Below, piece after piece: positions 5,590-29,947 of a stretch of DNA of 64,000 nucleotides. The notes under the pieces are model-generated. The model worked only from the letters and a program-made list of their open reading frames with translations, did not search any database and was not told the DNA's origin. The stretch lies in assembly GCA_964639295.1 (NCBI GenBank), contig CAZXDT010000002.1, forward strand, positions 66,609-130,608, read 5' to 3'. Position numbers and translations under genes: made by a program. Each line of letters begins with the position of its first letter. The stretch's first letter is position 1. This stretch comes from an uncultured Candidatus Saccharibacteria bacterium. Its GTDB lineage: Bacteria; Patescibacteriota; Saccharimonadia; Saccharimonadales; JALRHH01.

Positions 5590-6048
5590 CTATTTAGCAG
5601 TTGGTTTGAGGACGACGTGGCGGTCGCGGGCTTCGCCTTCGGATTCTGTTGCTAAGCCAGCATCTGCGGCAACTTTGTGGACCGTGCGGCGATCTGCTGC
5701 ATTCATTGGTTGCAGGTGCATAGGCTCGCCGGATTCTTGGACCTTTTTGACCCAGTCCTCTGCTTGTTGCGCCAGGCGATCTGCACGTTGCTTCTTGTAT
5801 TCTGCAACGTCTACGTTCACACGGGTGACTTCGTAACCGTTGTTTTTGAGTGCATTACTAACCATGAACTGTAGGGCACGGACGGTATCGCCGTGTTGAC
5901 CAATTAGGAAGCCGTTGAGGTGAGTTGATGGCACCTGGAGTTCTATAACTTCGTCATCTTCAGTCGTTGCGTATACATCAGTGTTAAGACCAAAGAACGA
6001 CAAGACGTCTTCTAGGTACTTCTTGGCGTATTGTAGGGACTCTTCCAT
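5590..6048 (-). CDS. jag: Jag/KhpB-type RNA-binding protein (KH + R3H)
   Basis: R3H region MNAADRRTVHKVAADAGLATESEGEARDRHVVL. Conserved position downstream of yidC. Confidence 0.8.
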   Translation of the reverse strand: MEESLQYAKKYLEDVLSFFGLNTDVYATTEDDEVIELQVPSTHLNGFLIGQHGDTVRALQFMVSNALKNNGYEVTRVNVDVAEYKKQRADRLAQQAEDWVKKVQESGEPMHLQPMNAADRRTVHKVAADAGLATESEGEARDRHVVLKPTAK

Positions 6049-7652: not shown

Positions 7653-7993
7653 CTTATCCTTATTCTAACATTTTTACATCAATTATTACACTGTCGGCAA
7701 TCCTGTTGTCGACCAAACCGTATAAAAATACACTGGCTGGCGCGTGAGCGCAAGTGGGTCACACTCAAATGGGGTGAAATTGACAATATTTACCCACTAA
7801 TTCTAGCAAGTTATCCACTTTTACTCAAGGGTTTTCCACAGATTAACAGATTGGGCCTGATTTTGTGCATAAAAACCCTACTTTTTCATATTTTTGTAGA
7901 TCTACTCAAAAGTGTGATGAAAGGCTGTGGAAAACTCCCAACTTTCTGTTATATTTATTGGTAACGATCAACAATTTTTTGAGGAGAGGGTAG
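7653..7993. other. oriC candidate, part 1 (rpmH-dnaA intergenic DnaA-box cluster plus AT-rich stretch)
   Basis: DnaA-box-like 9-mers, each 8/9 to TTATCCACA or its TTTTCCACA variant: TTATCCACT 7811-7819, TTTTCCACA 7832-7840, TGTGCATAA (reverse) 7864-7872, TGTGGAAAA (reverse) 7926-7934. AT-rich tract 7869-7905 contains a GATC. Confidence 0.6.
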
Positions 7994-15021: not shown

Positions 15022-15506
15022 TAGTTTGCCTCGCTACAAGCCACGGGCTTATATATAAGTTCATTTTGAGCAGGACATACAACGTAGATGCTGTTGTATG
15101 TGCCATTTACAGTGCTCTCAAGCAGGACTTTGAATGATCGGGCAGCCTCAGGTATGTCCACAATGAAACTTCCTGTGATAACATCACCCGTTGAAGATCG
15201 AGTAAAACTACCTTCTCTGACGTTGCCTGAGTAGTAGGGTTTTGGGTTCTGAATCTGTTTAATAAGGAAACCATACACCATTTGTCCGGTTGCCGTACCA
15301 TCCTTAATAGAGAAATCGTTACTGAGATTAAGCCCGTCAATACCTGATATTGTGACTGTTCTCTGTTCATCGGAAACCGAGTTCGTGGCTTCGGTTGTAT
15401 CTTGTGTTTTGGATGGAGTCTTTGGTTTATTTGTTGCAAGAATAATCAGTAGCAACAAACAGGTAGCCACCGCCCCGACAAGTATCAGTCTCTTTTTAGT
15501 TATCAT
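15021..15506 (-). CDS. Small bitopic protein (possible VirB8-type scaffold; unproven)
   Basis: N-terminal TM helix LILVGAVATCLLLLIILA plus a ~120 aa ectodomain. Start and stop overlap both neighbouring genes. Confidence 0.45.
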   Translation of the reverse strand: MITKKRLILVGAVATCLLLLIILATNKPKTPSKTQDTTEATNSVSDEQRTVTISGIDGLNLSNDFSIKDGTATGQMVYGFLIKQIQNPKPYYSGNVREGSFTRSSTGDVITGSFIVDIPEAARSFKVLLESTVNGTYNSIYVVCPAQNELIYKPVACSEAN

Positions 15507-18500
15507 TTGTAATCCACCTCTGTATGGGCATAAGTTAGTAGCTTTGCTACGTTTGCCGGGATTGTCCGTGTACCGTACTGACCAGGGTTAACATTGTACT
15601 CTTCGACGACGATCGAACCATCAGCCTTAACTTCGGCTACCATGGCAACGTGTCCTGCACTTGAGTTGGCGTGCTCACCTTCATCTGATTTATATCCAGG
15701 CTTCCCAGGTGCGTCGTTATCTGCCTCTACTCCACCAGCGGGCCAAGAAACAACTGAATATACCGCAGCTGCATGATCTACCTTATACCCGAGCGCTCTA
15801 CCGATGCTAGCTGCGAATACATCACCATTACCCATCGGCTCGCCGTGGTACTTACTTACGTGTTTTACGAGCCTGAACTTTACAAAATCCACACACTGGC
15901 CTCCACAAATACCATACGTTGCACTACAGCCCTTGTAGTCATCGCCCATGACCGATGTACCAACTTTCGCAGGTCCAGCTGGTAAGCTAAGCGTTACATA
16001 AACTGGGGCGTGGTCAGAAGCTTGGGAAATAATGCCTGTTTCTGGTTTGCGCGTCCAGCCACTTGCCTTAAGACTACTTGGACCTGCTACAAATATATGG
16101 TCGACACCCCTACCTTTTTCCTGGCCAGTTGAGGGTTTGCCATCTGCGAGAAGACTTGTGTTTTGGAGTACACCACTAGAGTTAAATACATCAATAGCAG
16201 GCTGCCAGTTAAGGCCAATATCTCCACCCGTCAGTACAATGCTTGTATCATCGGCTTTTGTATTTACCCAATCCAGCGTTTTTTGAGCTGCTTCTCGGGT
16301 ATGAGCGGGCGATCCGTTAAATTGCGGGTAGGATGAGTAATGAAGTGGCATAGCATATACCATCTGTCCGGAAGTCATTCGCAGGCCCACCCACGGAGTT
16401 GGGCCGTATCTTCCTCCTCCGCTCCACTGATTAGATGTACCACCATCAACTTTATTCATAGTTTGTGTATTCCAGAAAACGGCGAATTCCCTATTCATTA
16501 CGCCTTCATAGCCACGCGGAGCTAACTCTGCTTTGAGTAGACTAAACATAACATCGGTAGTTTCATTAATCATTACAACGTCAAACTTAGGATTGTTAAG
16601 ATTGGTTGAATCATCACCAGAAATGATCCGTGCTTGTAGTTTTGCACGTGCTTGAGAACAAGCGAAAGTGTTTGTCATTCCCAGATTAGCGCAAGCGGCC
16701 CCTGCGTGTTTGTCGTCAGTCTCCCTTAGGGTGTTGTATGTGCCTACCGTCAGACTGCCTCCTGCTATTGAAGAACTTCCGGAGCTGTTCCCTGTTTGGT
16801 CGCCCAGTTCTTCTTGAGAAAGCAGAGAGTCGTCATACATGGCGCCAGCCATGCCCGTAGAAGCTTCTATAAGCTTACAACCGTTTGTGGTGTCATTTTC
16901 TGGCATCCCAGTATCAGGGTTAACATTATCTTTCTCTGCTTCACCCCAATTCTTAGCTTTGTCGGGGTTGCTACAATCATGCGTACTCCAATAGACTTCC
17001 GGATCCTCCTGGAACACAGGGTCGTTTGAATCATATCCATATTGAGTAACGCCGTACGGGTCCTTGCTGGATGCAGCATCTGCTTTTTTAGTGCCACCAA
17101 ACTGGCTGGTGAGGGTTGCAAACGGGTTTAGTAGTGAACCGGCAAACGAACGCATTGTTCCATTTGTGGTGGTACTTGGTAGTGCAAGCGCCATCTTGGA
17201 AACAACCGAGTATTGGCTAGAGGTATCAAAGACTCGGGCAAAGGTAGACTCGTGTTTGAAATTGTCTTCGTCTTGTTGTCTCATCTCGGCCCTGATCTCT
17301 GCCGCTGTGCTGTCTGGTATCTTATGCGCACCAAGCCCATAATGGGCAAAGATATTGCCCGAAACATCCGCACCACCACCTGCCAGTTCCATATTGCGAC
17401 CCCCGCTTGGGTGCTCTCCGATCACGTCTTTTATAGTTTTCGTTGCAAACCAGTTACCAATATTCGCTATTAAAGGTTCGGCGAGCTTTTCAAGCTGGTC
17501 TACCGCTTGGCTAACCCCAGGCAGGTGCATTACTAAATCGGCAGCTACACCTGAAATAGTGTTGAGTAAAGAACCAATAGTCCCGTTAATAATGTTTGCC
17601 ACCGGCCCTAAAGGGGCGGTAATATCCTTTAAGACACCCGCTAGATCAACGGCAAAGTTTCCTAGCGTCAGAACAACTTCTGGACAAACACCAGAGGTAA
17701 TAAGACTGCCATCGTTACACTTATATCCATTGAACGCCTGCACCTTAGGACCTAGTAAACTCGCAGTTTTAGACGAACTTGTTCCCATAATCTCTTGGTA
17801 TATAGGGGATTCCTCAGCACCCGCGCCGTTTTGATCTGTTCCGGCGTCAGGCCCTAATGAGTCGGCAACGATACCTATATCTGCTGCGTCGGCTTGTCCT
17901 GATTTTATTTCATCGGCGTTCGTCCGGTACATCATATACATAGTGACCATTGATTGAGAGTTGACTACATAGTTAATCTTTTTTAGCGCTGGGGCTGCAT
18001 GCTGCATTGCCCCCACTATTTGTGATACTGAAGTTATCCAGCCTAGTATTGGTATTGAACCACCAACAATTTTACCAGTAAGATCGTTGGTGAATTGCGA
18101 GACTATATGCCCAGTGACCCCTTTTTTCTTAATGCTTTCTGCTTGATCGGCTAATTTTTTTGAGTCGGGGGCATCAAGCCCTAGCGCCACTATCCTAGCT
18201 CTAACATCACGTTCAAGTGCACTTGTTCTTTGCCCGTCGTTATCAGTCGTATCTGAGGCGGTACACGAGAAGTTGCCCAGTGCACACTGGAAAGCAATTG
18301 CGTACATTCCAGCCCGCGGTGTGGTTATCTTATTTAGGAAGTAGTATTTCCACTTAAGACTCCTGGCTGCCTTACGATCTTCCCTGTTCTCTTGCCGCTT
18401 ATCTCGCGTTTCGCAGGCCACGAGGCAACGCTTGATACCGTATTTTTTCTCCAGCAAAAGACCTACTTTATAGCGGTACATGATACGTTTGGCGAATGTT

Positions 18501-19327
18501 TCGTTTTGGAAAGATTTCTTCATCTCCCGCCGGACTTCAGTTCTATTCATTTGTTCGTATACTTTACCTTCGAAAAGCTTCGGGTTTCTTTCGTCGAATA
18601 CACCAGAGAAAAGTTCCATATTCCCTTTACGCATTGAGAATTTATTATTACCGTCTTTCCTGATCTCGATACCCTGGTTCTCGGCAAGCTTACCCTCAAA
18701 GTTTTTATCGCGCCAGGCATTGTATAACTGCGCAACAGGCCCATCACCTGGCGTTACAGAAACACAACTTTTGTTTGCCTTGGTTGTTGTACACTTGGTG
18801 CTCTTGTACATGCTAGGTACAACCTTCTTAACGATGTACTGTCTAAAGAGAGCATCTGTCATCTTGTCGGTTGCTTGTTCTGAGCTGGCATAAAAGTGGT
18901 TTTGGAGGTTGTTGACGATGTGTTGCACTTTCAAGGGCAACAATAGCAACATACTCATAACGATGCCGGCAATAAAACTACCGATAGCTGCCCCGATAGA
19001 GATTTTCTTACCGTTACGCTTGAGTAGCCCGCCGCTTTTCTTTTTATTGGGCTTACCCTTGCCCTCTTCTCTATAACCCGAACCAACTTGAGAACCCTCT
19101 CTGGGGTCTACGGTCGGACCAGATGCGGATTGGCTTGGATTTTCTTCGGCTTCTTTGAGGTCTTCGCCAGAGAGTCCCTCACGTGCAGCAATATCATCAG
19201 CAGCGCCACTGTAAGCAGCATCTTCCATTGCCTGTTCTTCTTCAGGGCTAATAGCTATCCCTTTAAGAAAGTCGGGAGTAGTCGAATCTTTTGCAGTTTC
19301 GTCGTCTTGTTTTGTTGGTGACACCAA
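15503..19327 (-). CDS. 1274-aa membrane-anchored protein with EEP (endonuclease/exonuclease/phosphatase) and C-terminal CHAP peptidoglycan amidase/peptidase domains
   Basis: TM helix ISIGAAIGSFIAGIVMSMLLLLPL. EEP motifs LTVGTYNTLRE, GGDIGLN, VDHIFV, SDHAPVYVTL. CHAP triad context CGGQCVDFVKF ... GHVAMVAEV ... VEEYN. Confidence 0.7.
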   Translation of the reverse strand: MVSPTKQDDETAKDSTTPDFLKGIAISPEEEQAMEDAAYSGAADDIAAREGLSGEDLKEAEENPSQSASGPTVDPREGSQVGSGYREEGKGKPNKKKSGGLLKRNGKKISIGAAIGSFIAGIVMSMLLLLPLKVQHIVNNLQNHFYASSEQATDKMTDALFRQYIVKKVVPSMYKSTKCTTTKANKSCVSVTPGDGPVAQLYNAWRDKNFEGKLAENQGIEIRKDGNNKFSMRKGNMELFSGVFDERNPKLFEGKVYEQMNRTEVRREMKKSFQNETFAKRIMYRYKVGLLLEKKYGIKRCLVACETRDKRQENREDRKAARSLKWKYYFLNKITTPRAGMYAIAFQCALGNFSCTASDTTDNDGQRTSALERDVRARIVALGLDAPDSKKLADQAESIKKKGVTGHIVSQFTNDLTGKIVGGSIPILGWITSVSQIVGAMQHAAPALKKINYVVNSQSMVTMYMMYRTNADEIKSGQADAADIGIVADSLGPDAGTDQNGAGAEESPIYQEIMGTSSSKTASLLGPKVQAFNGYKCNDGSLITSGVCPEVVLTLGNFAVDLAGVLKDITAPLGPVANIINGTIGSLLNTISGVAADLVMHLPGVSQAVDQLEKLAEPLIANIGNWFATKTIKDVIGEHPSGGRNMELAGGGADVSGNIFAHYGLGAHKIPDSTAAEIRAEMRQQDEDNFKHESTFARVFDTSSQYSVVSKMALALPSTTTNGTMRSFAGSLLNPFATLTSQFGGTKKADAASSKDPYGVTQYGYDSNDPVFQEDPEVYWSTHDCSNPDKAKNWGEAEKDNVNPDTGMPENDTTNGCKLIEASTGMAGAMYDDSLLSQEELGDQTGNSSGSSSIAGGSLTVGTYNTLRETDDKHAGAACANLGMTNTFACSQARAKLQARIISGDDSTNLNNPKFDVVMINETTDVMFSLLKAELAPRGYEGVMNREFAVFWNTQTMNKVDGGTSNQWSGGGRYGPTPWVGLRMTSGQMVYAMPLHYSSYPQFNGSPAHTREAAQKTLDWVNTKADDTSIVLTGGDIGLNWQPAIDVFNSSGVLQNTSLLADGKPSTGQEKGRGVDHIFVAGPSSLKASGWTRKPETGIISQASDHAPVYVTLSLPAGPAKVGTSVMGDDYKGCSATYGICGGQCVDFVKFRLVKHVSKYHGEPMGNGDVFAASIGRALGYKVDHAAAVYSVVSWPAGGVEADNDAPGKPGYKSDEGEHANSSAGHVAMVAEVKADGSIVVEEYNVNPGQYGTRTIPANVAKLLTYAHTEVDYK

Positions 19328-19345: not shown

Positions 19346-21250
19346 TTATATACCAGGCATGAGCCGGTTATTAAGATCGATCGTTCCTGTGCCACCCATT
19401 AACTCGCCTTGTTGCTGTATCTCTTGAACCTGGTTTGGGTTCGTTGTAATAAGATTGGTCTCTGTTGGGCTTGCAGCAATCTGAATGTGGACGTGGTTTT
19501 GACCCGCAAAGAATAAGCCCTGCCCTACAGGGAATTGACTAAGTCGCTTCTTTTCTTCACTCGTCAGTTTGAATGTCTGACTCAATACGTCAACAGCGGA
19601 GCTAGATTGCTTGAGAAGTATTTGCATAGATGCATTGGCTACAATTGCGCGACCCATGCGTGATCCCATAAAGTCTTCAACATCCTGAGTAATCGTGGTG
19701 ATTCCAAGATTATACTTACGCGCACGCTTAGCCAGGCTGAACAAGAAGCTTGCAGAATCTTCGTACTTCATCAGCTGCCAGGCCTCATCAACGATCAAGA
19801 TACGCTTTTTTTGGTCACTCTTGGTCTTGTTCCAGATAAAGTTCAATACGATGTACATGGCGACAGGACGCAACTCGTCTTCAAGATCACGAACATTAAA
19901 CACAACCAACGGGTTGTTGATGTCTATATTGCTCTGTTGGGAGAAAATACCAGCGAATGTTCCAGTAGTGTACTTGCGGAGGCGTTGCGCCAGCTGTGGG
20001 CCGGTACCACCCATGTGCAGTAAGGTGTCATACAGGTCGGTTATTGTTGGGGGAATACTACTGTGCGTCAGCGGATCGTTGGTAATACCCGCACGTGCAT
20101 AAGTTTCAATGAGGGCTGCATCAAGGTCGGCTTCCTCGCTTGGAGCAAGTGCTGGCATTGCTGGACCACCGTTGTTAGCCATGGCTGCTTGTGCACCACC
20201 CATCATGAGCCGCAGTAGGCCGTGTAGAGTTATGAGGTTACTACGCAGAGCGTTATCCGCCTCTTCAGTGTCAACGACGGTTGGTAGTTCAAAAGGATTT
20301 ATACGAGTTGTAGAGTTTAGGCTCAGTCTGACGTACGCACCGCCTACTGCTTCGCACATACGTTGATATTCGTTTTCTGGGTCGATGATAAACACTTCGA
20401 CACCCATCATCATGCTCCGTAGTGCTTCGAGCTTTACGGTAAACGACTTACCAGCACCAGACTTTGCAAATACCACTGAGTTTCCGTTTTCCAGGGAGAA
20501 CCGGTCAAAGATAACCAGTCCAGAGTTGTGCATGTTGATACCATACAAAATACCATCATCCTGAGTTAGGTCAGCTGATGTGAACGGGAAGCTCGTGCTC
20601 AGTGCACCGGTGTTGAGGTTGCGGCGGATCTGTAGCTGGTCCATAAGTTGTGGAATGGTGCTATTGAGCCCTTGTTCCTGTTGAGAAGTAGCTGGCTTGC
20701 TGTAGATCAGTTGTTGACCAAGCATAGATTCGACTTTGTGTGCCACAAACTCAAGTTCATCCATACTGCCGCCGTAAATAGTGAAATACAGACCAAATCG
20801 GAAGAACCGTTCCTCACCAACCTGCAACTTGTCACGCATTTCTTCGGCGTCAAGGATAGCGGCTTGCTTGCCCGGATCACGGATACGGCCCTTTTCGGCA
20901 TCTATTTGCAGGCCGGCCTCGAGCTGAGTCACTTTTTTACGTAAGTTTTCTAGGACCACTTGGCTTTCTACTGGGTAGACAAACATAGACACGTCAATAA
21001 CCTCATCAAGGTTCACCATACTACTAAGCCAACCAGTATAAATCTGGCGAGGGTATCCGTAGACATAGTATGTTCGGGCGTAACGTGTACCTAGCTGGAA
21101 GTGCGTACCAAAGAACTCCAAACTACTCGGCGCAATGAAGTCACGAAGTGCAGTAATACCCTTTTGGAACGCCGCCTGAACTTCTTGCTGCTCACGGAAC
21201 TGCTGCTGTTGCGCCAATGCTACTGGATCAAGAGGTTGTTTCCGTGCCAT
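19346..21250 (-). CDS. virB4: T4SS ATPase, VirB4/TrbE/PrgJ family
   Basis: Walker A FAKSGAGKSFT and Walker B RILIVDEAWQLM. The N-terminal domain pattern YYVYGYPRQIYTGWLSSMVNL is typical of monoderm VirB4s. Confidence 0.9.
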   Translation of the reverse strand: MARKQPLDPVALAQQQQFREQQEVQAAFQKGITALRDFIAPSSLEFFGTHFQLGTRYARTYYVYGYPRQIYTGWLSSMVNLDEVIDVSMFVYPVESQVVLENLRKKVTQLEAGLQIDAEKGRIRDPGKQAAILDAEEMRDKLQVGEERFFRFGLYFTIYGGSMDELEFVAHKVESMLGQQLIYSKPATSQQEQGLNSTIPQLMDQLQIRRNLNTGALSTSFPFTSADLTQDDGILYGINMHNSGLVIFDRFSLENGNSVVFAKSGAGKSFTVKLEALRSMMMGVEVFIIDPENEYQRMCEAVGGAYVRLSLNSTTRINPFELPTVVDTEEADNALRSNLITLHGLLRLMMGGAQAAMANNGGPAMPALAPSEEADLDAALIETYARAGITNDPLTHSSIPPTITDLYDTLLHMGGTGPQLAQRLRKYTTGTFAGIFSQQSNIDINNPLVVFNVRDLEDELRPVAMYIVLNFIWNKTKSDQKKRILIVDEAWQLMKYEDSASFLFSLAKRARKYNLGITTITQDVEDFMGSRMGRAIVANASMQILLKQSSSAVDVLSQTFKLTSEEKKRLSQFPVGQGLFFAGQNHVHIQIAASPTETNLITTNPNQVQEIQQQGELMGGTGTIDLNNRLMPGI

Positions 21251-22230
21251 TACTGTATTGCCCTATCGAGATTTGGTTGTGGTGCAACACCCTGGCCTTT
21301 AGTGACAACGGGTACGCTCAGATCATCAAAGTTCTTGAGCTGCTGACGAGTAGCGGTGTCAGGGTTGTATGCATCATAGTACAACTCAATAAGTTCTTGA
21401 GTATCAAGCGGAAGTCCTTGGACGCCACACTGTTGTAGTCCACCGAGTGCAGCTTGTACACGGTTACGAAGTTCGTCCTTGGCTTTTTGTAAGTCACCTT
21501 CGTTAATAACCACGTGTTGTTCCTTCTTATTGAACATGCCAGTCAAACCTGTAAAGAAGTTTTTACTCTGTGCAATTGCCTGCTGTGTAGCAGGTGTTGG
21601 GTTATACGGAATAACGACATAGAATTTCTTGTCCATAATGTTAGTTTGCTGTGCAATATTGTCCATGTAACCTATGTAATCTTCCATAAGTAGTGCGAGG
21701 AGCATGTTATCGTGCTCGCTACGGATCTTGTCCAAGCGATCAATATACGGACGGATATCTACCTTTTGTGAGCGGATAAATATCTGGATATCAAAGTAGA
21801 GCGAGTTTAAGAACCCTTGGTAGCTGAACTCTACGGCCTCACGCTCCTCTGGGCTCATCAGGTCAAAGTTAATAGATTTGACCATAATTACCGAGCGGAA
21901 GCTCCCGTCGTTCATTATCACGATACCATCGCGAATCTCAGCGATCTGCAGGGTGTTCTGTGTACTGTTCGGGTTACTCTTAACAACTGGCGCAGCTACG
22001 ACTTGTGGTTGCTGGGGTGCGTATTGGGGCATACCAGCTGGTTGTGGCGCATACTGCTGTGGCATTTGTTGAGCCGGTTGCTGCTGGTATTGGGGTTGAG
22101 GCATAGCCTGGGGCTGCTGATATTGCGCCGGTGCAGCTTGTTGGGGATATGGGCTATAGCCAGCCGGAACCGGACCCGGCATAGGGGGTTGCCCAACAGG
22201 ATATTGTGGATTTTGGTTTGTCGGATCCAT
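21250..22230 (-). CDS. P/Q-rich T4SS accessory protein; its C-terminal ~230 aa resemble a VirB4 N-terminal domain without a P-loop
   Basis: N-terminal ~85 aa is almost pure P/Q/A/Y low complexity. It is followed by IAEIRDGIVIMNDGSFRSVIMVKSINFDLMSPEEREAV...FYVVIPYNP. The stop overlaps the virB4 ATG (TAATG). Confidence 0.45.
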   Translation of the reverse strand: MDPTNQNPQYPVGQPPMPGPVPAGYSPYPQQAAPAQYQQPQAMPQPQYQQQPAQQMPQQYAPQPAGMPQYAPQQPQVVAAPVVKSNPNSTQNTLQIAEIRDGIVIMNDGSFRSVIMVKSINFDLMSPEEREAVEFSYQGFLNSLYFDIQIFIRSQKVDIRPYIDRLDKIRSEHDNMLLALLMEDYIGYMDNIAQQTNIMDKKFYVVIPYNPTPATQQAIAQSKNFFTGLTGMFNKKEQHVVINEGDLQKAKDELRNRVQAALGGLQQCGVQGLPLDTQELIELYYDAYNPDTATRQQLKNFDDLSVPVVTKGQGVAPQPNLDRAIQ

Positions 22231-22276
22231 TAACTCGCTTTACCCCACCCTCATAGGAGGCTTTCTGTACCAAGTA

Positions 22277-22305
22277 ATTATAGCGTAAGCACATCCCTGC
22301 GGGAA
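22277..22305 (-). promoter_or_regulatory. Possible internal sigma70-type promoter downstream of the four-helix-bundle cassette
   Basis: Minus strand reads TTCCCG-17 nt-TATAAT, about 45 nt upstream of the PQ-rich gene's start. Confidence 0.3.
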
Positions 22306-22312
22306 GAGATTA

Positions 22313-22347
22313 CATAAGGTTATAGGTATTAGGTTTTAGGTTGTAGA
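22313..22347. repeat. Heptamer tandem array (5 units, consensus TTNTAGG), left arm
   Basis: cataagg ttatagg tattagg ttttagg ttgtaga, read directly. Overlaps the last codons and stop of the four-helix-bundle gene. Confidence 0.85.
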
Positions 22348-22685
22348 TTTCGGACGAGTACGTTTAGCATCCTTTGGACCTCGTCTAACAGTGCTAATGT
22401 TGCAGAAAGCTCAAGTGTGTATATCTCTTGGCATAGCAGGAGCTGTGTTTCTAACTCTGCAGCAGACCCTTTGGCAATACCCAGGAATTGACAATATTCT
22501 TTTAAGTTATTTCTTTGTTGACCTTCGGCTATGTTGCTTGGGATAGACACCGCACATCTTTGCATCTGAGAAGCTAAACCATATAACTCGTCACGGGGTA
22601 ACTTTTTAGTAACCACGTATACTTGTTTTGCAAGGTCGAACGACTTTCTCCAAACAGTTAGATCTTTATATGATTGTATGGCCAC
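22329..22685 (-). CDS. Four-helix-bundle protein (23S rRNA intervening-sequence protein / Avd family)
   Basis: Family hallmark YKDLTVWRKSFDLAKQVY...LPRDELYGLASQMQRCAVSIPSNIAEGQQR...FLGIAKGSAAELETQLLL. GTG start. Confidence 0.85.
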   Translation of the reverse strand: MAIQSYKDLTVWRKSFDLAKQVYVVTKKLPRDELYGLASQMQRCAVSIPSNIAEGQQRNNLKEYCQFLGIAKGSAAELETQLLLCQEIYTLELSATLALLDEVQRMLNVLVRNLQPKT

Positions 22686-22720
22686 CCTATAACCTCTAAC
22701 CTACCACCTAAAACCTATCA
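22686..22720. repeat. Heptamer tandem array (5 units, CCTNNNA, the reverse complement of TNNTAGG), right arm
   Basis: cctataa cctctaa cctacca cctaaaa cctatca. It fills the gap between the PrgI-like stop and the four-helix-bundle start, and is inverted relative to the 22313-22347 array. Confidence 0.85.
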
Positions 22721-23815
22721 TCTCAGAGAGATCGTCACTTCACCGTCATCAGAGGTTTTAATCTGATTAGCTTGGCGGGCTAGAACATCTACATTGAGAT
22801 CATTATTCTGGGCTAGTTGTTGGGCTGCTGGGCTTGGTACGGCTTGCTCTTGGGCTTGCTTCTCTGCCACGCGTCGTTTCTTCTCGGCCTGTTCTTCTTG
22901 TTGTTCATCTAGGGTCTTGATGGTTCGAAGGTGCTTATTAGACCCCTTAGACTTCTTGTGCTCAGTATGTAGTTTGTCTAGCAACGCTTGCTGGTCGTCA
23001 GTACTTGGCCCAGCAACTACAGGTGCTACCGGAGTGGCTACACCTGGGGCAACCGTTTGGTTATGATCAAATGTTGCGTACCCTGGCTGTGTTGCGGCTT
23101 GCTGGCCTGCGGTCGCGTTCAGGAACCAGTAGTCAGCCGGTTGCCCAGTCTTGGGGGCTGCTGGAGCTGGGTTTTGCATTTGTGCCACAACTTGCTGCCG
23201 GTGAGCTTGAGTTGACTGCGCTATCATCTGGTCAAGGTGGTGAGCAGTTGGATTACTTTGTTCATCCAGGATGTCATCTTGAGCAGTTACTTCGTATGTT
23301 GGCACGTCTTGCGTAAATGATGACGTGTCCAACAGTCGGTCCGATCCAGCCATTGCATAGTTAGGCTGAGCAAACAGGTTCACGTTGACGTTTTTGACGG
23401 CCCAGCCACGGCTATCTATAGTGTTGGCTAGTGCTGATAGGCGACTCTTGACCTCTGTCTGGGATAGCCCGTCAGTGAGTCGTCGTTCCACTTTCTTTGG
23501 CACGGTAATAGTCACCATCTCTTTAATACCACTTTGGTCCCAAATACGACGACGTGGTAGTAAAAAGAACTTAATTTTTGCCAGTAACCACACTTCTGAT
23601 GGCTGATCGTGGACAAATGGTCCAGATAGCACTGACAAAAGTATCATATGGGGCAAAAATATAATGCCGAGCCACCAGAAACCAGAGGTAGCAAACATAA
23701 ACCAAAAGAACCCAGAAATAATCACAATAGCGGAGTAAATAGTCTGCCTAGGTGTCATCCACCCAATCAGCTTATCCTCTGCCTCAATATCCTGAATTAC
23801 CTTATACGTAGCCAT
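22718..23815 (-). CDS. PrgI/VirB3-like T4SS membrane protein with a long Q/A-rich C-terminal extension
   Basis: The N-terminus MATYKVIQDIEAEDKLIGWMTPRQTIYSAIVI followed by two TM helices matches the PrgI-family pattern. The start is set at the ATG (23815) rather than the TTG at 23848. Confidence 0.6.
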   Translation of the reverse strand: MATYKVIQDIEAEDKLIGWMTPRQTIYSAIVIISGFFWFMFATSGFWWLGIIFLPHMILLSVLSGPFVHDQPSEVWLLAKIKFFLLPRRRIWDQSGIKEMVTITVPKKVERRLTDGLSQTEVKSRLSALANTIDSRGWAVKNVNVNLFAQPNYAMAGSDRLLDTSSFTQDVPTYEVTAQDDILDEQSNPTAHHLDQMIAQSTQAHRQQVVAQMQNPAPAAPKTGQPADYWFLNATAGQQAATQPGYATFDHNQTVAPGVATPVAPVVAGPSTDDQQALLDKLHTEHKKSKGSNKHLRTIKTLDEQQEEQAEKKRRVAEKQAQEQAVPSPAAQQLAQNNDLNVDVLARQANQIKTSDDGEVTISLR

Positions 23816-23880
23816 ACTGCTTAAGTATAGCAAGAACCAGCGTGTCAACGATACATTGTCGCATAAATATCAAACGTGAT

Positions 23881-26800
23881 TTATATGGAGTGGGCTTTGT
23901 TGTTCGAGGCAGGAATTGGTAACTGGATTGAGTTCGGATTACTTGTCCACTCTTCGAGTGTAATCATCCTAAGGCCAAGTACCGAGTAGTTTACGCGGTA
24001 GAAGCCCTCGTCCTTGTGCTTTACAACAGCGTGTGGGTATTTGACCAACAAGTCTTGGGCCATAACTCCAACGAAGGCTTGAGTAGGGTCCCAGAGGTAG
24101 TTGAAACTGTATATTTTGATACCACTGACCGTAGTGTATATATGGTTAACATTTGTCTTAAGCCGTTGATCAGAGGGGGGTGCACCACCTGCGCCGCCAG
24201 CGCCGCCAGCCGGAGGTGCGCCGCCAGCCGGAGGTGCGGCTGCACCACCTGCAGCCGCAGTAGCTGACCAGGTCTTGCGTCGATCTAAGTACGCACTATT
24301 GCCTGTAGCTTCCATCTCTGCCTCGTGTTCACGTATATATTTTCCACCGACAGCATCCCCGTTGAGTTGTGTTGCAAATTCTTCACGAACATCAGGGGTC
24401 ATGCCGTTCATCATATCGTGTATGCCGGCGGCATTAGCGATGGCCGTCGCAAATTCAACTGAACCAACACCATGCTGAATTTCAGCTGCCTCGGCTCTGC
24501 CTAACATATGCCGGGCGAGTTCTCCTGCCTGGCCTTTGCGCATCCGATGGCTGTTTGCTGGGTTAAATCCGTTGCTAGCAGCTGCTAATAGCCCCGCATC
24601 GCTTAGGGTACCGTTTGCCGCACCCATCAGTTCACCGAATCCCGCACTAGATGCTAAGCTTCCACTCTGCTTTACTAGAGAGGCGGCTTGTGAATCAGTC
24701 ATAATGCCGCTTGAGACAGCATTTCTCATCCATGAGGCGCGTTCAGCGGTTGAGTCTGTCGAAGACGCTGAGGCAAGTGATGCCGTAGCTGCTGTGTGTT
24801 GCATCTGCTTAGAACCCATAACAGTACCGTATGCTTGCTCAGTGTAGGCTAGCTGTCTTTCGGCCTCTTCGTGTGAGACTCTCATGCTGGAACTGTATCG
24901 ATTTATAAAGTCTTTCTTACTTGTAGCGTATTGAGCAATCTTGTTGGCATCATCGTTTGCGGCAGCAGACGGATTGTTCTTGATCGACTCAGCTGCAGCT
25001 GCTGCAAAGTGACCCATCTCAGCATTTTCTAACTCGCTGCGATATCGACCAGTTCTAGGAAGTGCACCAGATCCAAGGGCGGCTGTTCTGGCTAAGCGAT
25101 GTTGTCGTCCTGCAACAAGACTAGACCCGATCCTTGTCCTATCAAAACCTGCTTTGAGTGCTGCCCGACCTTCGGCTCGTTGTCCTTGGCGCCACTTCTT
25201 TTGACCGTCAAAGAAGCCACGGCCACGGTCGTTAATTGCCCCAGTAAGTGCGTTAAAGGCACCCATGCCTGCCCTAAACGTTGCTGGGATAAAGAAGTAC
25301 GGTGCAATGTATGCAATGAGCTTAATAAATACTCCTGTTGGTCCATCGTAAATAGTGTCCGCTGTGGCTGCAAAGAATCGTCCTGATGCGATGAGCACCA
25401 TAATAAGCGGGAACATCATCAGCATGGCTATAAAGGTAGTTTTCCAGACGGTCCACAGTTTGTCGTTGCCCGGGAAGATCCAGACGAGAATTGCGATTGG
25501 TGACAATACAACCAATAAGATAATGAGAACTTGTCGGATAACCAGCGTTACATACCCAAGAAGTAGCGCACCTATAGTTACGAGTGCAAAGCTACCAAGA
25601 ATACCCCAGGTGACTGCACCAATTCCCGCTCCAACTAATAGTCCACCAGTTGATAATCCCAAGAACAGGCCACCTTCGCCTCCACCAAACAGTTGTGTTA
25701 GCGAACTAACATCACCACCAGGTGCTGCTAGGGTTATGAGGTGGAATATGCCAGTACCTATGGCATTGGATAGTTCAATCAGCCAAACACACAAGTAATA
25801 GGATATAGACATGAACAGTACGGCTGAGAGCATGCGAGGTAGGGCTTTCTTAACGGTATATGCATCAAATAGGTTGCTACCGAGAGCCGTTCCAATAACC
25901 ATCACCAGCATCATTGGAACAAGGATGAGGTAAGCAAAATTACGCATAATTCCCCATGCTTTTTTGAGGCCACCGCTAGCAGTCATCTTATCTGTCTGGA
26001 CCGTTAGTAAATTACGGACTTGAGAGTCGAGGAACCCAACTATGCCGTCCATAGCTTCTAGAACTGCACAGCCAATCCAACCAAAGCTTCCTTGATCTGC
26101 TTCACAGGTATTTTCTCGTGGTTCTGATCCACCGGTAGTTGCACCACCTATACCGGTTTGTTGTAGCTGTGCTGCTGCATCAGAAGCAAGATCTGTTTTA
26201 AGGTCGGCTGCGAGGGCATTCATGTTATCAGCTAAGTCTCGACACTTAATAATATCGTTATGATCACCTTTGTTGTCGAGCATCCCATAGCCACTAATGT
26301 GCGTATCGTCACCTTTTTTGGAGTCATCAGTTATCACGTAACTATCGACTACTTTACCATCGGTGTACCACTGCAAGTGATAAGTTTTATCTTGGATAGG
26401 CTGATCTGTGCCAGTCCAGTCGAATCGCTCGAAGCCACTTGCGCCCTCGTCATTGCCACACTTCTCTTTAAAGTCACCAAAGTATATCAGGTACCTCATA
26501 CCATTAGACAACGCACCCTCTATGTCCTTGCCTCCTAGATATTTGGATTGAAACAGATCATTCCAGGCATTGCCGTAGAAGTCATCTTTCTTTTCGGCAT
26601 TTTCATAGGCGTGCCTATCGTCTATCTCGTAGAGCCCACTACCTTGCCTACAGCTACCGGTTTCACGGATGTATTTAAATGTGTCACAAGCTGTATCTGT
26701 GGTACTCCAGCCAAGAAGCTCGTGTGCTTTTTTCCAAATAGGATCACAGTCTACCTGGGCGTCATTGCTACTGTCACCTTCAACGAGTCTGCCAACGTAT

Positions 26801-27093
26801 TCACCGGCCGTTATGTCTCCCTTCAGAATGTCGTTGGTATTATTTTTTGTTTGTACACCATTGCTGTCGATACATTCCTCAACTGCTCTGGCAAGCACCC
26901 ATTTGTCTGCTTTGGAGGTGACACTGTCTTTACCGTAGGGGCTCGTATCCACGGGTGTGGTTCCACCACCGGGGTCAATAAGGCTTGCGTATACTTTAGT
27001 CGCGGGTAATACAACAGATGCCAGCTGGATAAATACTAGAAACCCAACGAAATATAGTGCCCACGACTGTCTCTTTTTTTGTCTACGTATCAT
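23881..27093 (-). CDS. VirB6/TrbL-like polytopic T4SS protein fused to a C-terminal Peptidase-S74 (endosialidase/tail-fibre intramolecular chaperone) domain
   Basis: Signal/TM, then a ~380 aa Cys-containing ectodomain, then ~7 TM helices (aa ~390-620). An Ala-rich ~350 aa region is followed by the G/A/P linker AAAGGAAAPPAGGAPPAGGAGGAGGAPP. The S74 signature follows: SDQRLKTNVNHIYTTVSGIKIYSFNYLWDPTQAFVGVMAQDLLVKYPHAVV...FYRVNYSVLG. Confidence 0.7.
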   Translation of the reverse strand: MIRRQKKRQSWALYFVGFLVFIQLASVVLPATKVYASLIDPGGGTTPVDTSPYGKDSVTSKADKWVLARAVEECIDSNGVQTKNNTNDILKGDITAGEYVGRLVEGDSSNDAQVDCDPIWKKAHELLGWSTTDTACDTFKYIRETGSCRQGSGLYEIDDRHAYENAEKKDDFYGNAWNDLFQSKYLGGKDIEGALSNGMRYLIYFGDFKEKCGNDEGASGFERFDWTGTDQPIQDKTYHLQWYTDGKVVDSYVITDDSKKGDDTHISGYGMLDNKGDHNDIIKCRDLADNMNALAADLKTDLASDAAAQLQQTGIGGATTGGSEPRENTCEADQGSFGWIGCAVLEAMDGIVGFLDSQVRNLLTVQTDKMTASGGLKKAWGIMRNFAYLILVPMMLVMVIGTALGSNLFDAYTVKKALPRMLSAVLFMSISYYLCVWLIELSNAIGTGIFHLITLAAPGGDVSSLTQLFGGGEGGLFLGLSTGGLLVGAGIGAVTWGILGSFALVTIGALLLGYVTLVIRQVLIILLVVLSPIAILVWIFPGNDKLWTVWKTTFIAMLMMFPLIMVLIASGRFFAATADTIYDGPTGVFIKLIAYIAPYFFIPATFRAGMGAFNALTGAINDRGRGFFDGQKKWRQGQRAEGRAALKAGFDRTRIGSSLVAGRQHRLARTAALGSGALPRTGRYRSELENAEMGHFAAAAAESIKNNPSAAANDDANKIAQYATSKKDFINRYSSSMRVSHEEAERQLAYTEQAYGTVMGSKQMQHTAATASLASASSTDSTAERASWMRNAVSSGIMTDSQAASLVKQSGSLASSAGFGELMGAANGTLSDAGLLAAASNGFNPANSHRMRKGQAGELARHMLGRAEAAEIQHGVGSVEFATAIANAAGIHDMMNGMTPDVREEFATQLNGDAVGGKYIREHEAEMEATGNSAYLDRRKTWSATAAAGGAAAPPAGGAPPAGGAGGAGGAPPSDQRLKTNVNHIYTTVSGIKIYSFNYLWDPTQAFVGVMAQDLLVKYPHAVVKHKDEGFYRVNYSVLGLRMITLEEWTSNPNSIQLPIPASNNKAHSI
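24202..24237. repeat. Perfect 18-bp tandem duplication (gccgccagccggaggtgc x2) inside the G/A/P linker
   Basis: Read directly. Encodes APPAGG x2 on the minus strand. Also flanked by a 12-bp direct repeat tgcaccacctgc (24181-24192 and 24241-24252). Confidence 0.85.
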
Positions 27094-27223
27094 AAGATGT
27101 TGTCAATTATATAGGCATATCATAGCACTGGCCATACTTTTACCATAATAATTATAGATGAGCGTTTACCGCGTACCACCGAGGCTTGCCAGAACGAGCA
27201 AATCACCATATAGTAAGCATCAA

Positions 27224-27886
27224 ATGAAATTACTAAAATACACATGTCTTGTCATGATAAGCCTGTTCGGAATCGGATTTGCTTCAGTAGTTATTCCGCA
27301 GCCCGTGCAGGCAGCAGGAGGTTGCATGACCAGCGCAAGCACTGATTCACAAGCTACCGCTCAACAGGCCTGTAAAGAAGGATATATAACTGAATGCAAA
27401 AAAACGTATAAGAAGGCGTTTTGTGATGATCTAACAGTTGCTCAGATAAATAAATGTGCAACCGGCACCGGTAATGGGCTCAAGGCTAACTGTATGAAAC
27501 CACTTGAAACGGCATGGAAGCCATCAACAACAGCATCTTCGGGCAGTAGTTCAGGAGCCAGCTCTGGCACCGGATGCTCTTCCCTTGACCCGACGTGTAC
27601 CCATACAAGTGGTGATTGTGACGAGGGCAGTATCGAGAATATTAATAAAGATAACTGCACAGTGATTAGTTACATAGTCATTATTACTAATGCGTTATCG
27701 GCACTTGTGGGGGTTGTGATAGTGACGATGATTATCATCGGTGGTATTCAGTACTCTACTGCCGGTCCGGACCCAAGTAAGGTTCAGGCTGCCAGGACAA
27801 AGATTACCAATGCCCTGCTCGCGCTTGTGTTGTTTGTGTTTGGGTTCTCTATATTACAGTGGCTGATACCAGGAGGAATATTCTAG
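27224..27886 (+). CDS. T4SS pilin-like protein 1 (VirB2/TrbC-type hairpin; Cys/Ser-rich ectodomain)
   Basis: The signal peptide starts at MKLLKYTCLVMISLFGIGFA (the track start at 27158 is probably too early). There are 10 Cys and an SSGSSSGASSG tract. C-terminal TM-loop-TM: VGVVIVTMIIIGGIQYSTAGPDPSKVQAARTKITNALLALVLFVFG. Confidence 0.65.
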   Translation: MKLLKYTCLVMISLFGIGFASVVIPQPVQAAGGCMTSASTDSQATAQQACKEGYITECKKTYKKAFCDDLTVAQINKCATGTGNGLKANCMKPLETAWKPSTTASSGSSSGASSGTGCSSLDPTCTHTSGDCDEGSIENINKDNCTVISYIVIITNALSALVGVVIVTMIIIGGIQYSTAGPDPSKVQAARTKITNALLALVLFVFGFSILQWLIPGGIF

Positions 27887-28341
27887 ACATGAAACTACTA
27901 AAGATAGCTTACGCCTCTGTAACAATGTTATTTCTTGCAGTATGTATTAATACTTTGAGCTCGCAGACAGTTTCTGCTGCTGCCTCACCTACTGGGGCGA
28001 ATGTTGCCGGTTGTGCTGGCCAGGGTATCAAGATAATCCCACCTTGGTACAAATACATAGAGCGATCAGTTGATGATACTGGCCACTGTGGTTTGAACTT
28101 TGACTTTCCGAACGATCTTGGGCTGGTTGCGCTGGCCTTGGTTGAGATTCTACTCCGAATTGCTGCAATTGTGGCCGTAGCTTACATCGTGTATGCCGGA
28201 TTCCTATATATAACGAGTCAGGGTGAGCCGGATAAGGCTAAGAGCGCCCAACAAACCATTACAAATGCGGTGATAGGCTTAATTGTGTCTATATTGGCTA
28301 CTGGTATTGTGGCATTTATTGGTTCGAGGTTGACCTCATGA
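27859..28341 (+). CDS. T4SS pilin-like protein 2
   Basis: Signal peptide. C-terminal hairpin IVAVAYIVYAGFLYITSQGEPDKAKSAQQTITNAVIGLIVSILATGIV. 28-nt overlap with paralogue 1. Confidence 0.7.
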   Translation: MADTRRNILDMKLLKIAYASVTMLFLAVCINTLSSQTVSAAASPTGANVAGCAGQGIKIIPPWYKYIERSVDDTGHCGLNFDFPNDLGLVALALVEILLRIAAIVAVAYIVYAGFLYITSQGEPDKAKSAQQTITNAVIGLIVSILATGIVAFIGSRLTS

Positions 28342-28616
28342 AATACTTATTTGGGCTTGCTGACAAGAATGATTTTGACGTGCCCCAGACACTAGTTACT
28401 ACTAGTACGTCAACCAACATATTCCAGATTGTATTCGCAATTGCTGGCGGCATAGCACTGATCGTCCTTATGTTGGCTGGGTTGAAGTACGTCACCTCTC
28501 AAGGTGATCCGGCAGCCGTTGCTAAAGCCAAGAACACTATTATTTATGCAGCCATCGGTTTAATGGTTGCTGGGCTTGCCTTTACTATCGTAGCGTTCAT
28601 ATTGAGGACGGTGTGA
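28338..28616 (+). CDS. T4SS pilin-like protein 3 (minimal, 92 aa)
   Basis: GGIALIVLMLAGLKYVTSQGDPAAVAKAKNTIIYAAIGLMVAGLAFTIV. ATGA overlap with the upstream gene. No obvious leader. Confidence 0.7.
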   Translation: MKYLFGLADKNDFDVPQTLVTTSTSTNIFQIVFAIAGGIALIVLMLAGLKYVTSQGDPAAVAKAKNTIIYAAIGLMVAGLAFTIVAFILRTV

Positions 28617-29053
28617 TGTTACGGCGCCTCAGATTACTTATAGCCAGCTTTGCCTGTATGGGTATGCTTGTTGTACCCGCTGCTGGTGTATTTGCAGAAG
28701 ATACTTCCACCACCGGCTCCCCTCCCTCTGGTTTCGATTTTTTCAAGCCGTGTGAGACTACTGATCGAAACGCGACAGTATGTACTGACAAGGATCAGGC
28801 TCAAACAGAGACCAACAACAGTATCTACGGCCCCAACGGTATTATTACTAAGATTGCTAACATCGTTGCCATAATTGTGGGTGTTGCAGCGGTTATTGTC
28901 ATTGTTATTGCCGGCATACAATATATGTTATCTACGGGTGACCCCAGTAAGGTCAGTAGAGCCAAAGATGCAATAATCTATGCGGTCATTGGGCTTGTTG
29001 TCGTAGTGCTGGCTCGGACGTTAGTGGTATTCATAATAGGAAAGTTAAAGTAA
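28613..29053 (+). CDS. T4SS pilin-like protein 4
   Basis: Signal peptide. VAAVIVIVIAGIQYMLSTGDPSKVSRAKDAIIYAVIGLVVVVLA. 4-nt overlap with the upstream gene. Confidence 0.7.
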   Translation: MMLRRLRLLIASFACMGMLVVPAAGVFAEDTSTTGSPPSGFDFFKPCETTDRNATVCTDKDQAQTETNNSIYGPNGIITKIANIVAIIVGVAAVIVIVIAGIQYMLSTGDPSKVSRAKDAIIYAVIGLVVVVLARTLVVFIIGKLK

Positions 29054-29055
29054 GA

Positions 29056-29445
29056 ATGAAATTTGTTAAACAATTAATGCTCCTTGCTCTCATGGTGAGT
29101 GCACTCTTCGTCGCTGCTCCTCCAGCAGTAAGCTTTGCGGCCGGTACCTCAAACTATGAAGCGTGCGAGGCAGTAAAAGCAATCAACCCCAACGGCGTTT
29201 GTAATCCTAACGCCTCCAGTCGTCTTAGTAAGATATTGAAAATTGTTCTGCAACTATTAAGTCTGGTTGCAGGAGTAATTGCGGTTATCATGCTAATTGT
29301 TGGGGGGCTCAAGTATATAACCTCCCAAGGTGATGCTGCAGGGGCTGCCAGTGCCCGGAATACGATAATTTACGCGGTTGTTGGGCTTGTTATAGTGGTG
29401 TTTGCTCAGATATTGGTTAAGTTCGTGCTGAGCAAGGCTACATAA
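29056..29445 (+). CDS. T4SS pilin-like protein 5
   Basis: Signal peptide. VIAVIMLIVGGLKYITSQGDAAGAASARNTIIYAVVGLVIVVFAQILVKFVLSKA. Confidence 0.7.
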   Translation: MKFVKQLMLLALMVSALFVAAPPAVSFAAGTSNYEACEAVKAINPNGVCNPNASSRLSKILKIVLQLLSLVAGVIAVIMLIVGGLKYITSQGDAAGAASARNTIIYAVVGLVIVVFAQILVKFVLSKAT

Positions 29446-29511
29446 CCTAAGTCCTTGATGACGCAACAGTGGTATGGTATAAGTAAACAAGAAATAAGAA
29501 AGGTAATCTAA

Positions 29512-29928
29512 ATGATTCAAACTATAAAAAAATATATTACTAACGCGATGCTTGCAGCGCTCTTTTTGGTGCCAGTTCTAACACCAGCAGTAGCACACGC
29601 AGATGACATCCAGAGCGGACTTTGTGCAGGTGTAAACTTGAGTGTGTCTGACTCAGCAACCTGTAACGCTAACGACCAAGCTGCAGAAAGCAAAGTTAAC
29701 GGACTGATCAAGCTTGTTATCAACATCTTCTCACTTGTTGTTGGTGTTGTATCTGTTATCATGATCATCATCGGTGGTCTTAAGTACATCACCTCTTCTG
29801 GTGATTCAAACAATGTTACTAATGCAAAGAACACTATCCTCTACGCCGTAGTCGGTCTAGTAGTAGTTGCCTTGGCACAATTCATTGTGAAGTTTGTACT
29901 CAGTAAAGCTGCAGGCGCTGGCGAATAA
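29512..29928 (+). CDS. T4SS pilin-like protein 6
   Basis: Signal peptide. VVSVIMIIIGGLKYITSSGDSNNVTNAKNTILYAVVGLVVVALAQFIVKFVLSKA. Its C-terminus is closest to paralogue 5. It has its own 66-nt upstream spacer and a strong terminator. Confidence 0.7.
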   Translation: MIQTIKKYITNAMLAALFLVPVLTPAVAHADDIQSGLCAGVNLSVSDSATCNANDQAAESKVNGLIKLVINIFSLVVGVVSVIMIIIGGLKYITSSGDSNNVTNAKNTILYAVVGLVVVALAQFIVKFVLSKAAGAGE

Positions 29929-29947
29929 AGCCTAAGCCCAAGAATTT

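Follow-up and report, generated by a model that had tools for sequence, protein, structure and literature searches.

The window analysed here, a 64,000-nt stretch of contig CAZXDT010000002.1 (positions 66,609 to 130,608) from an uncultured Candidatus Saccharibacteria bacterium, contains on its minus strand an operon for a type IV secretion system (T4SS). Between the prgI-like and TraC-like genes of this operon lies a short cassette, in which a small four-helix-bundle open reading frame (ORF) of the PF05635 family is bracketed by two inverted arrays of tandem heptamers. The features of the locus, including its ribosome-binding sites (RBS), are as follows.

22718-23848, minus strand: prgI-like host gene of the T4SS (PF12666, E 5.9e-7), upstream of the cassette.
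22686-22720, minus strand: 5' array of five heptamers in the (T/G)AGGTNN register, seen in the sequence, by tandem-repeat search, by pattern enrichment and by predicted pairing.
22329-22685, minus strand: ORF of 357 nt with a GTG start, encoding a 118-residue four-helix-bundle protein of the S23p family (PF05635) known from intervening sequences (IVSs) of 23S rRNA.
22313-22347, minus strand: 3' array of five heptamers in the NNACCTN register, the reverse complement of the 5' array.
22306-22310, minus strand: AUCUC, predicted in the minimum free energy (MFE) structure to pair with GAGAU at 22720-22724, at the end of the prgI-like ORF, closing the stem by 5 more bp.
22231-22312, minus strand: native host intergenic spacer with the GCTTACGC-TATAAT box and the GGGTGGGG RBS of the TraC-like gene.
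21250-22230, minus strand: TraC-like host gene, downstream of the cassette (PF26593 TraC-like on the record of an identical protein).
19346-21250, minus strand: VirB4-like ATPase gene with P-loop domains, after the TraC-like gene.

On the minus strand the 5' array reads TGATAGG, TTTTAGG, TGGTAGG, TTAGAGG and TTATAGG from 22720 to 22686, and the 3' array reads TCTACAA, CCTAAAA, CCTAATA, CCTATAA and CCTTATG from 22347 to 22313. On re-reading of the window, these heptamers and their coordinates proved exactly as given in an earlier note made from the letters of the stretch. The TGA stop codon of the prgI-like gene (22720-22718) forms the first three bases of the first 5' unit, the GTG start at 22685 directly abuts the end of the 5' array, and the GAGG/TAGG RBS of the cassette gene lies within the last units of this array, just before the GTG. 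The 3' array overlaps the last six codons of the ORF (NLQPKT) and its TAA stop codon (22331-22329), and extends 16 nt past the stop. Two arrays of period 7 were called by Tandem Repeats Finder (TRF), one with 4.9 copies at 22317-22350 and one with 4.7 copies at 22686-22718; the only further period-7 call in the 64 kb (29479-29501) falls on a weak, A-rich ribosome-binding stretch. The degenerate three-unit pattern AGGTNNNAGGTNNNAGG, allowing at most one mismatch, has 8 matches in the window compared with 0.9 expected, seven of them inside the two arrays. No further PF05635-family gene or AGGTTNN array was found elsewhere in the window. Within the 64-kb window, arrays of this kind are confined to the flanks of the cassette.

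The boundaries of the cassette were defined by comparison with 80 orthologous T4SS loci, all from Saccharibacteria and retrieved with the VirB4-like protein (individual loci are given as L numbers). A profile search revealed PF05635 ORFs in 6 of the 80 loci and none in the other 74, and the empty sites fix the boundaries, in agreement with the proposal that the cassette was inserted into the operon. The empty sites (L007, L010 and others) have a spacer of 100-115 nt with the same GCTTACG-TATAAT box and GGGTGGG RBS, and these motifs are common to L007 and L010, which lack the insert, and to L004 and L196, which carry it. In the empty-site alignment, the prgI-like gene retains its native C-terminus (...ISLR), matching its relatives. 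Judged from this alignment, the insert is about 22313-22720, starting at the stop codon of the prgI-like gene, and the 98-nt spacer with the TATAAT box belongs to the host, outside the cassette. The earlier note had counted the intergenic spacers and a promoter-like TTCCCG-17-TATAAT among the marks of the cassette. The promoter-like sequence does exist, but the spacer and its box are native and present in insert-less relatives, and they are therefore no evidence for the cassette. Since its -35 hexamer matches only 3 of 6 positions, TTCCCG-17-TATAAT was not called by the promoter scanner, which called no promoter inside or after the cassette on the minus strand; no promoter-like site was found upstream of the gene either. 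The cassette is promoterless and co-directional with the operon. An identical cassette is also present in SRR8931239, SRR8931241 and SRR8931242.

L004 is the only one of the 80 loci with a cassette in the same slot as in the window, and protein look-ups yielded two more orthologous cassettes in this slot, L196 (83% amino acid identity) and L197 (74%). In L021 and L074 the cassette occupies the TraC-like/VirB4 junction, L069 carries three cassettes at the PrgI/TraC, TraC/VirB4 and post-VirB4 junctions (3800-4290, 5455-5945 and 7895-8330), and in L015 the PF05635 ORF lies beside recF, outside the T4SS three-gene stretch. With this one exception, the cassettes of the six relatives that have any fall within the PrgI-TraC-VirB4 stretch. 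Each L069 cassette has its own heptamer unit, and two of them fall into a divergent subfamily characterised by the motif RSSxSxGANYxEA. L081 contains several cassettes, one of which is in inverted orientation and one split by an insertion sequence. At its PrgI/TraC junction (L081:1600-4543), the inverted PF05635 cassette abuts the truncated N-terminus of another, and a second family gene split in two, a transposase-like ORF of 336 residues and a PIN-like ORF together with its small partner are found in the same region; the junction looks like a pile-up of insertions. Where the upstream junction of an intact cassette was read in these operons, the array starts at most a few nt after the stop codon of the preceding gene, and the inverted L081 cassette also has an array starting at or near the stop of the adjacent gene.

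Inverted heptamer arrays also occur without a gene, between the TraC-like stop and the VirB4 start. Perfect inverted hairpins were found in L052:5653-5733, with a predicted energy of -47 kcal/mol, and in L045:5854-5980, and single gene-less arrays lie at this junction in L020:5901-5926, L049:5932-5962, L083:5929-5954, L016:383-407, L013:4685-4713 and L004:5963-5981. They may be what is left of cassettes, or cassette relatives that lack a gene. The earlier note had set against its own proposal the finding of repeats scattered without the gene at random; repeats without the gene do exist at neighbouring junctions, but their placement is non-random.

Folding of a 451-nt minus-strand RNA predicted that the two arrays pair with each other, in both the MFE and the centroid structures, and enclose the ORF, as the complementarity of the arrays had suggested from the outset. 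In the partition function, the mean probability of pairing of the 5' array with the 3' array is 0.71, with values of about 0.7-0.99 along the stem and above 0.9 for the five AGGU(U) cores. The isolated arm duplex reaches -30.5 kcal/mol versus -18.5 ± 3.5 kcal/mol for shuffled arms (z = -3.4). The z-score of 0.19 for the whole 451-nt RNA is not significant, because the internal structure of the ORF dominates. The nested register consists of five helices of 5-6 bp with loops of 1-2 nt between them, giving an interruption every 7 nt, and a slipped register offers an alternative of 20 bp at 90%. A repeat finder reported inverted repeats between the arrays, 90% complementary over 20 nt and fully (100%) complementary over 10 nt. 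The GAGG/UAGG RBS and the GTG of the cassette gene are mostly paired within the predicted stem. The AUCUC/GAGAU extension is kept in neither L196 nor L197 and is possibly fortuitous. Of 10 other cassettes, 8 likewise gave predicted long-range pairing with a probability of 0.75-0.93, among them an IVS of Azospirillum and the orthologs L196, L197 and L004.

The encoded protein matches PF05635 with an E value of 1e-35 and 122.6 bits (cut-off 33.8), residues 7-108 covering profile positions 1-105 of 106, whereas the bAvd Pfam model remains below its 40-bit cut-off (21.4 bits, E 3.6e-4); the assignment to the S23p family made at first sight is confirmed. A match to the PHROG 'Avd protein of DGR' (diversity-generating retroelement) was found at 6.6e-7. 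The family motif GxxRxxxSxxxNxxE (Zhang et al. 2013, PMC3936711; Lin 2006) includes the conserved R-x3-S-x3-N-x2-E, which the window protein matches with Arg43, Ser47, Asn51 and Glu54; these four residues and Gly55 are invariant in the family alignment. The closest solved structure is Xanthomonas XCC0516 (PDB 2GSC, E 7e-20) with five chains, and by analogy with this relative the window protein would form a homopentameric toroid. A homopentamer of the PF05635 family is also attributed to Lin 2006, as cited in PMC4990558. Comparison of the window gene with L196 yields a dN/dS (ratio of nonsynonymous to synonymous divergence) of 0.09 with 57% of synonymous sites differing (pS 0.57), and by this measure the protein is under strong purifying selection. 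Between the same two cassettes, the 5' array differs at 3 of 32 positions and the 3' array at 2 of 35, which makes both arrays, on this pairwise comparison, far more conserved than the synonymous sites. Selection on the protein and conservation of the arrays together suggest that the system does something.

The same architecture was then traced through 112 further family loci, 80 on metagenome contigs and 32 on viral contigs. Inverted tandem repeats flank the gene in nearly all of them, each locus with its own unit. Among 99 non-redundant genes from these contigs, TRF detected an array in at least one flank of 92 and in both flanks of 62. A period of 7 or 14 was found for 61 of 75 arrays in the 5' flank and for 63 of 79 in the 3' flank, period 8 accounting for about 10%. 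Period-7 arrays have a median of 4.3 copies (mode 4-5, range 2 to about 16), and 72 distinct units occur among 102 arrays. Complementarity was measured without gaps and scored against mismatched flank pairs; for 70 of the 99 genes, the own flanks exceed the 99th percentile of mismatched pairs (about 1 expected), with a median complementary arm of 26 nt. A comparable repeat is present in 6 of 475 random control segments. Duplex energy on 96 x 130-nt flanks was rejected as a measure of complementarity for being too noisy, as mismatched pairs reach -37 kcal/mol. The unit is AGGTTNN in the window, L196 and L197 and GACTTAA in L004 (61% amino acid identity), and the two sides are complementary each time. 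Where the upstream ORF is co-directional (53 loci), the median distance between its stop and the beginning of the 5' arm is 4 nt, 55% of the arms beginning within -10 to +15 nt, and in L004, as in the window, the first unit opens with the host stop codon. The 5' arms are rich in G (725 G versus 256 C) and the 3' arms in C, an asymmetry tied to gene orientation.

In Azospirillum lipoferum AZO_p2 (L202), the family gene lies inside the large-subunit (23S) rRNA (Rfam, 919.7 bits), with five CAGAGGA/CGGAKGA units on one side and their complement on the other, and the Riemerella family gene has the same array arrangement. Members of the family are bracketed in this way in at least four phyla, on viral contigs and in a true rRNA IVS. 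A search for rRNA signature strings in the window and about 200 loci gave one chance match only, a weak negative, as this search also missed the true IVS of L202. The protein WP_010994075.1 is encoded on two plasmids of Nostoc sp. PCC 7120, gamma and alpha (L198 and L199). The homology between these copies runs from the ATG to about 90 nt beyond the stop, with 2 versus 3 copies of the CTCTGCC unit in the 3' array; the 3' array is present in both copies, and a complementary 5' array was not seen in either. One Nostoc copy has a perfect TTGACT-17-TATAAT box upstream and adjoins an ISL3 transposase.

Based on these results, we propose with moderate confidence that the window carries an IVS-type, promoterless and probably selfish cassette, made of a PF05635 gene and its inverted heptamer arrays, that landed in an mRNA-encoding T4SS operon behind the stop codon of the prgI-like gene. 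The cassette would be transcribed within the operon mRNA, where the arrays would pair into a stem of about 35 nt, made up either of five 5-6-bp helices separated by small internal loops or of the 20-bp register. This stem would close off the ORF and mask its RBS and GTG, and it would be a substrate of RNase III, as in the IVSs of Coxiella, Leptospira and Salmonella. Cleavage by RNase III would excise the cassette from the transcript and separate the upstream from the downstream cistrons, the downstream gene retaining its own native promoter-like box and RBS. As the stem begins right at the upstream stop codon, its outer turns should be opened by ribosomes that terminate on prgI, and expression of the cassette would thereby be coupled to translation of the host gene. 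The cassette itself would be a selfish or neutral passenger. We infer its mobility, its processing by RNase III and a role for its protein from these comparisons.

Several observations weigh against this proposal. Cleavage by RNase III and co-transcription are argued by analogy. A plain RNase III stem requires neither a 7-nt period, nor 4-5 copies, nor placement at a stop codon, and the predicted interruptions of the nested register at each 7 nt would make a less ideal substrate. Predicted long-range pairing is weak in L021 and in the post-VirB4 cassette of L069, with the coordinates chosen here. An excess of G-U pairs over A-C mismatches was not found in 73 stems (66 vs 90), so selection on the sense RNA is not demonstrated, and a role at the DNA level or in protein binding fits equally. 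Strong purifying selection on the protein also points to a cassette that is more than an RNA element. Period 7, the 4-5 copies, the position at the stop codon and the gene-less hairpins are not accounted for by the IVS reading alone, which therefore leaves room for a model in which a pentamer reads its own heptamers.

In such a model, which we regard as possible and put forward tentatively, the arrays would serve as binding sites for the pentameric protein encoded by the cassette itself, each protomer taking one heptamer, either on RNA or on single-stranded or hairpin DNA. The protein and its array would form a self-propagating or self-regulating element with the gene-less hairpins as non-autonomous relatives, and this would be compatible with the RNA stem. 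The commonest copy number of 4-5 (median 4.3) matches the homopentamers of the family, seen as five chains in PDB 2GSC and given by Lin 2006 as cited in PMC4990558, and all five protomers of the Avd pentamer make contact with an RNA stem-loop, flipped bases being lodged in the crevices between them (preprint 10.1101/2023.10.23.563531). The small internal loop at each 7 nt of the window stem, the lack of a G-U wobble bias and the conservation of the arrays well above synonymous sites are consistent with protein binding, as are the gene-less inverted arrays at the same operon junctions (L052 with its -47 kcal/mol, and L045). In addition, the Xanthomonas GGGAATC unit, with 186 arrays and 70 inverted pairs, also fronts the S23p gene XCC0516. 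However, three cassettes of one genome (L069) have three different units, no other AGGTTNN array is present in the window, and copy numbers from 2 to about 16 and arrays of period 8 do not fit one heptamer per protomer. Shared ancestry alone would make protein and unit co-vary, and the binding is putative.

It is unlikely that the arrays instead act at the DNA level, as the terminal inverted repeats or recombination sites of a cargo-carrying DNA transposable element similar to a miniature inverted-repeat transposable element. The sporadic occurrence of the cassettes at varied junctions, one of them inverted in L081, and the L081 cassette that abuts the truncated N-terminus of another would fit such an element. 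Their presence on viral contigs and plasmids, including one protein on two Nostoc plasmids with differing array copy numbers, would fit as well, and so would the lack of a strand-specific wobble bias. However, no transposase or recombinase was found in the cassette or the nearby ORFs, no target-site duplication is present at the boundaries defined by the empty sites, and no near-identical cassette copies were found in the window or the 80 loci. With 72 units, the ends are not conserved among relatives, unlike ends that are recognised by a transposase, and the strong orientation bias with the host operon, together with the G-rich 5' and C-rich 3' arms, points to a strand-specific role at the level of expression. 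An integron gene cassette is likewise not supported: the repeats lie on both sides of the ORF, the cassette is alone in the T4SS operon, and no integrase is among its neighbours.

A further explanation, which we consider doubtful, treats the arrays as a translational insulator or coupler, in which TAG, TGA and TAA within the heptamers stop all frames and AGG/GAG motifs aid re-initiation on the cassette gene. As 7 is not a multiple of 3, stops in successive heptamers would fall in all three frames and end any read-through from the host gene. Stops in the sense direction reach 0.096 per nt in the 5' arms, compared with 0.057 after shuffling at equal composition. No frame stays open in 40% of 5' arms (7% of shuffles), and the start of the G-rich 5' arm at the upstream stop, which in the window and L004 supplies the first triplet, also agrees with this function. 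On the other hand, 60% of the 5' arms leave at least one frame open, the complementary 3' array and the gene-less hairpins are not accounted for, and in rRNA IVSs there is no upstream translation. That the cassette is the remnant of a DGR with an orphan Avd gene is most improbable: the weak bAvd and PHROG matches stand against the far higher PF05635 score, the orthologous cassettes of this T4SS slot are not accompanied by DGR parts, no direct repeat resembling a template/variable pair occurs in the window, and, in line with the earlier note, no reverse transcriptase is present among the six ORFs spanning 15.5-27.1 kb (T4SS, CHAP and S74-type), to which the Pfam scan was limited.

The only family of direct repeats of at least 45 nt in the window falls within paralogous genes for small membrane proteins at 27.7-29.8 kb. 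These genes stand in a row on the plus strand (27158-29930), divergent from the T4SS operon, share a conserved 50-nt segment (27705, 28875 and 29738), and may encode pilin-like or VirB2-like proteins. Directly after the VirB4-like gene, a 1274-residue protein (15503-19327, minus strand) carries a CHAP peptidoglycan-hydrolase domain at its C-terminus; a CHAP-domain protein beside VirB4 is typical of T4SSs of the Gram-positive type. Another protein of the operon, of 1070 residues (23881-27093, minus strand), ends in a Peptidase_S74 domain, an intramolecular chaperone that is unusual for a component of a secretion system, and its gene contains an 18-nt tandem repeat (24191-24238) encoding a Gly/Ala/Pro-rich stretch. 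PADLOC matched no defence system at the cassette.

Among known systems, family genes have been described within cas loci, where 18 of them were read as candidate cas genes (Zhang et al. 2013, PMC3936711). Similar to these, the window gene is a small family gene wedged inside an operon, as in the case between cmr3 and cmr2. On a plasmid of Picosynechococcus sp. PCC 7003 (L201, NZ_CP016476.1, 126543-126899), cas10/cmr2 and cmr3 are separated by an array-flanked family gene that matches these cas-associated cases. Taken with the T4SS insertions, its arrays suggest a generic cassette of operon junctions and not a component of the cas system. The window protein shares the four-helix-bundle fold class with Avd, a pentameric barrel that binds structured RNA. 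Unlike the Avd of DGRs, it is accompanied by no reverse transcriptase and no template/variable repeats and matches PF05635 rather than the bAvd model.

Intergenic heptamer arrays are known from several bacteria. In Xanthomonas, the 186 GGGAATC arrays, with 70 convergent pairs, lie on average 28 nt after the upstream ORF versus 160 nt before the next ORF (Rehm et al. 2015, PMC4692102), and one of them, 6 nt after bccP, overlaps the annotated start of XCC0516, the crystallised S23p protein (Rehm supplement, PMC4692102). Other examples are GGGGAYT in Nostoc (PMC4692102), TAACTGA in Beggiatoaceae (MacGregor 2015, PMC4679880) and the cyanobacterial short tandemly repeated repetitive sequences. The cassette arrays resemble them in period 7, in about 4 copies being commonest, in frequent inverted pairs and in the position near the end of the upstream ORF, whereas the intergenic arrays share one unit genome-wide and mostly enclose no gene, and each cassette has its own unit and an enclosed gene. 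The intergenic arrays have been discussed as G-quadruplex or regulatory repeats, and the main texts of PMC4692102 and PMC4679880 do not mention S23 or a four-helix bundle. In the searchable library, no literature linking such arrays to the PF05635 family in general was found, and heptameric repeats together with an IVS are mentioned only in the Coxiella paper PMC4990558.

PF05635 proteins and heptamer arrays might even constitute one widespread element system, in which a pentamer recognises the tandem heptamers of its own cassette, on a stem or hairpin, at roughly one heptamer for each protomer; we offer this as a speculation that is rather unlikely to hold. If true, the gene-carrying cassettes would be the autonomous form, and the Xanthomonas GGGAATC arrays, the cyanobacterial heptamer arrays and the T4SS-junction hairpins would be non-autonomous derivatives of a system that targets sites just past stop codons or the tips of rRNA helices. 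Such a system would account for the excess of heptamers in bacterial intergenic DNA, for the origin of protein-coding rRNA IVSs and for family genes inside cas, T4SS and phage operons. Apart from this speculation, the gene with its inverted heptamer arrays is found mostly outside rRNA, at junctions of protein-coding operons (T4SS, Picosynechococcus cmr), on plasmids and on viral contigs, and in this light rRNA IVSs become one particular place where a general cassette lands. The same view gives a simple alternative reading of the PF05635 genes once proposed as cas-associated and ties them to the excess of heptameric repeats in bacterial genomes. The family-wide rule of a gene with its own arrays is of more interest than the window element itself, a variant of the IVS-type unit already known in 23S rRNA.

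Protein-coding IVSs of 23S rRNA have been known since the 1990s, and the Leptospira IVS was reportedly described by Ralph and McClelland in 1993. The window cassette resembles these IVSs in its PF05635/S23p family, in its length of about 400 nt and in an ORF enclosed by terminal inverted repeats that are predicted to form a long stem. The helix 45 IVS of Coxiella burnetii has its S23p ORF after two or three tandem GACAGAT heptamers and a degenerate one (Warrier et al. 2016, PMC4990558), the copy number varying among strains (PMC4990558). Its terminal stem of 28 bp is cut in vitro by RNase III at the start of the first heptamer (PMC4990558), and its ORF is reported to be decaying and untranslated (PMC4990558). 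With stem arms of tandem heptamers shared with the Coxiella (GACAGAT) and Azospirillum (CAGAGGA/CGGAKGA) IVSs, and with this in vitro cut, the likeness to rRNA IVSs is stronger than the earlier note had claimed. Similar to the Coxiella IVS, the ribosome-binding region of the window gene lies inside the stem. RNase III cutting has been demonstrated for rRNA IVSs only, and for the window cassette it is proposed by analogy. Unlike the decaying Coxiella ORF, the window gene with its dN/dS of 0.09 appears to be under strong purifying selection, and unlike the 23S rRNA IVSs, which occupy the tip of helix 9, 25 or 45, the window cassette lies behind a stop codon between the prgI-like and TraC-like genes.

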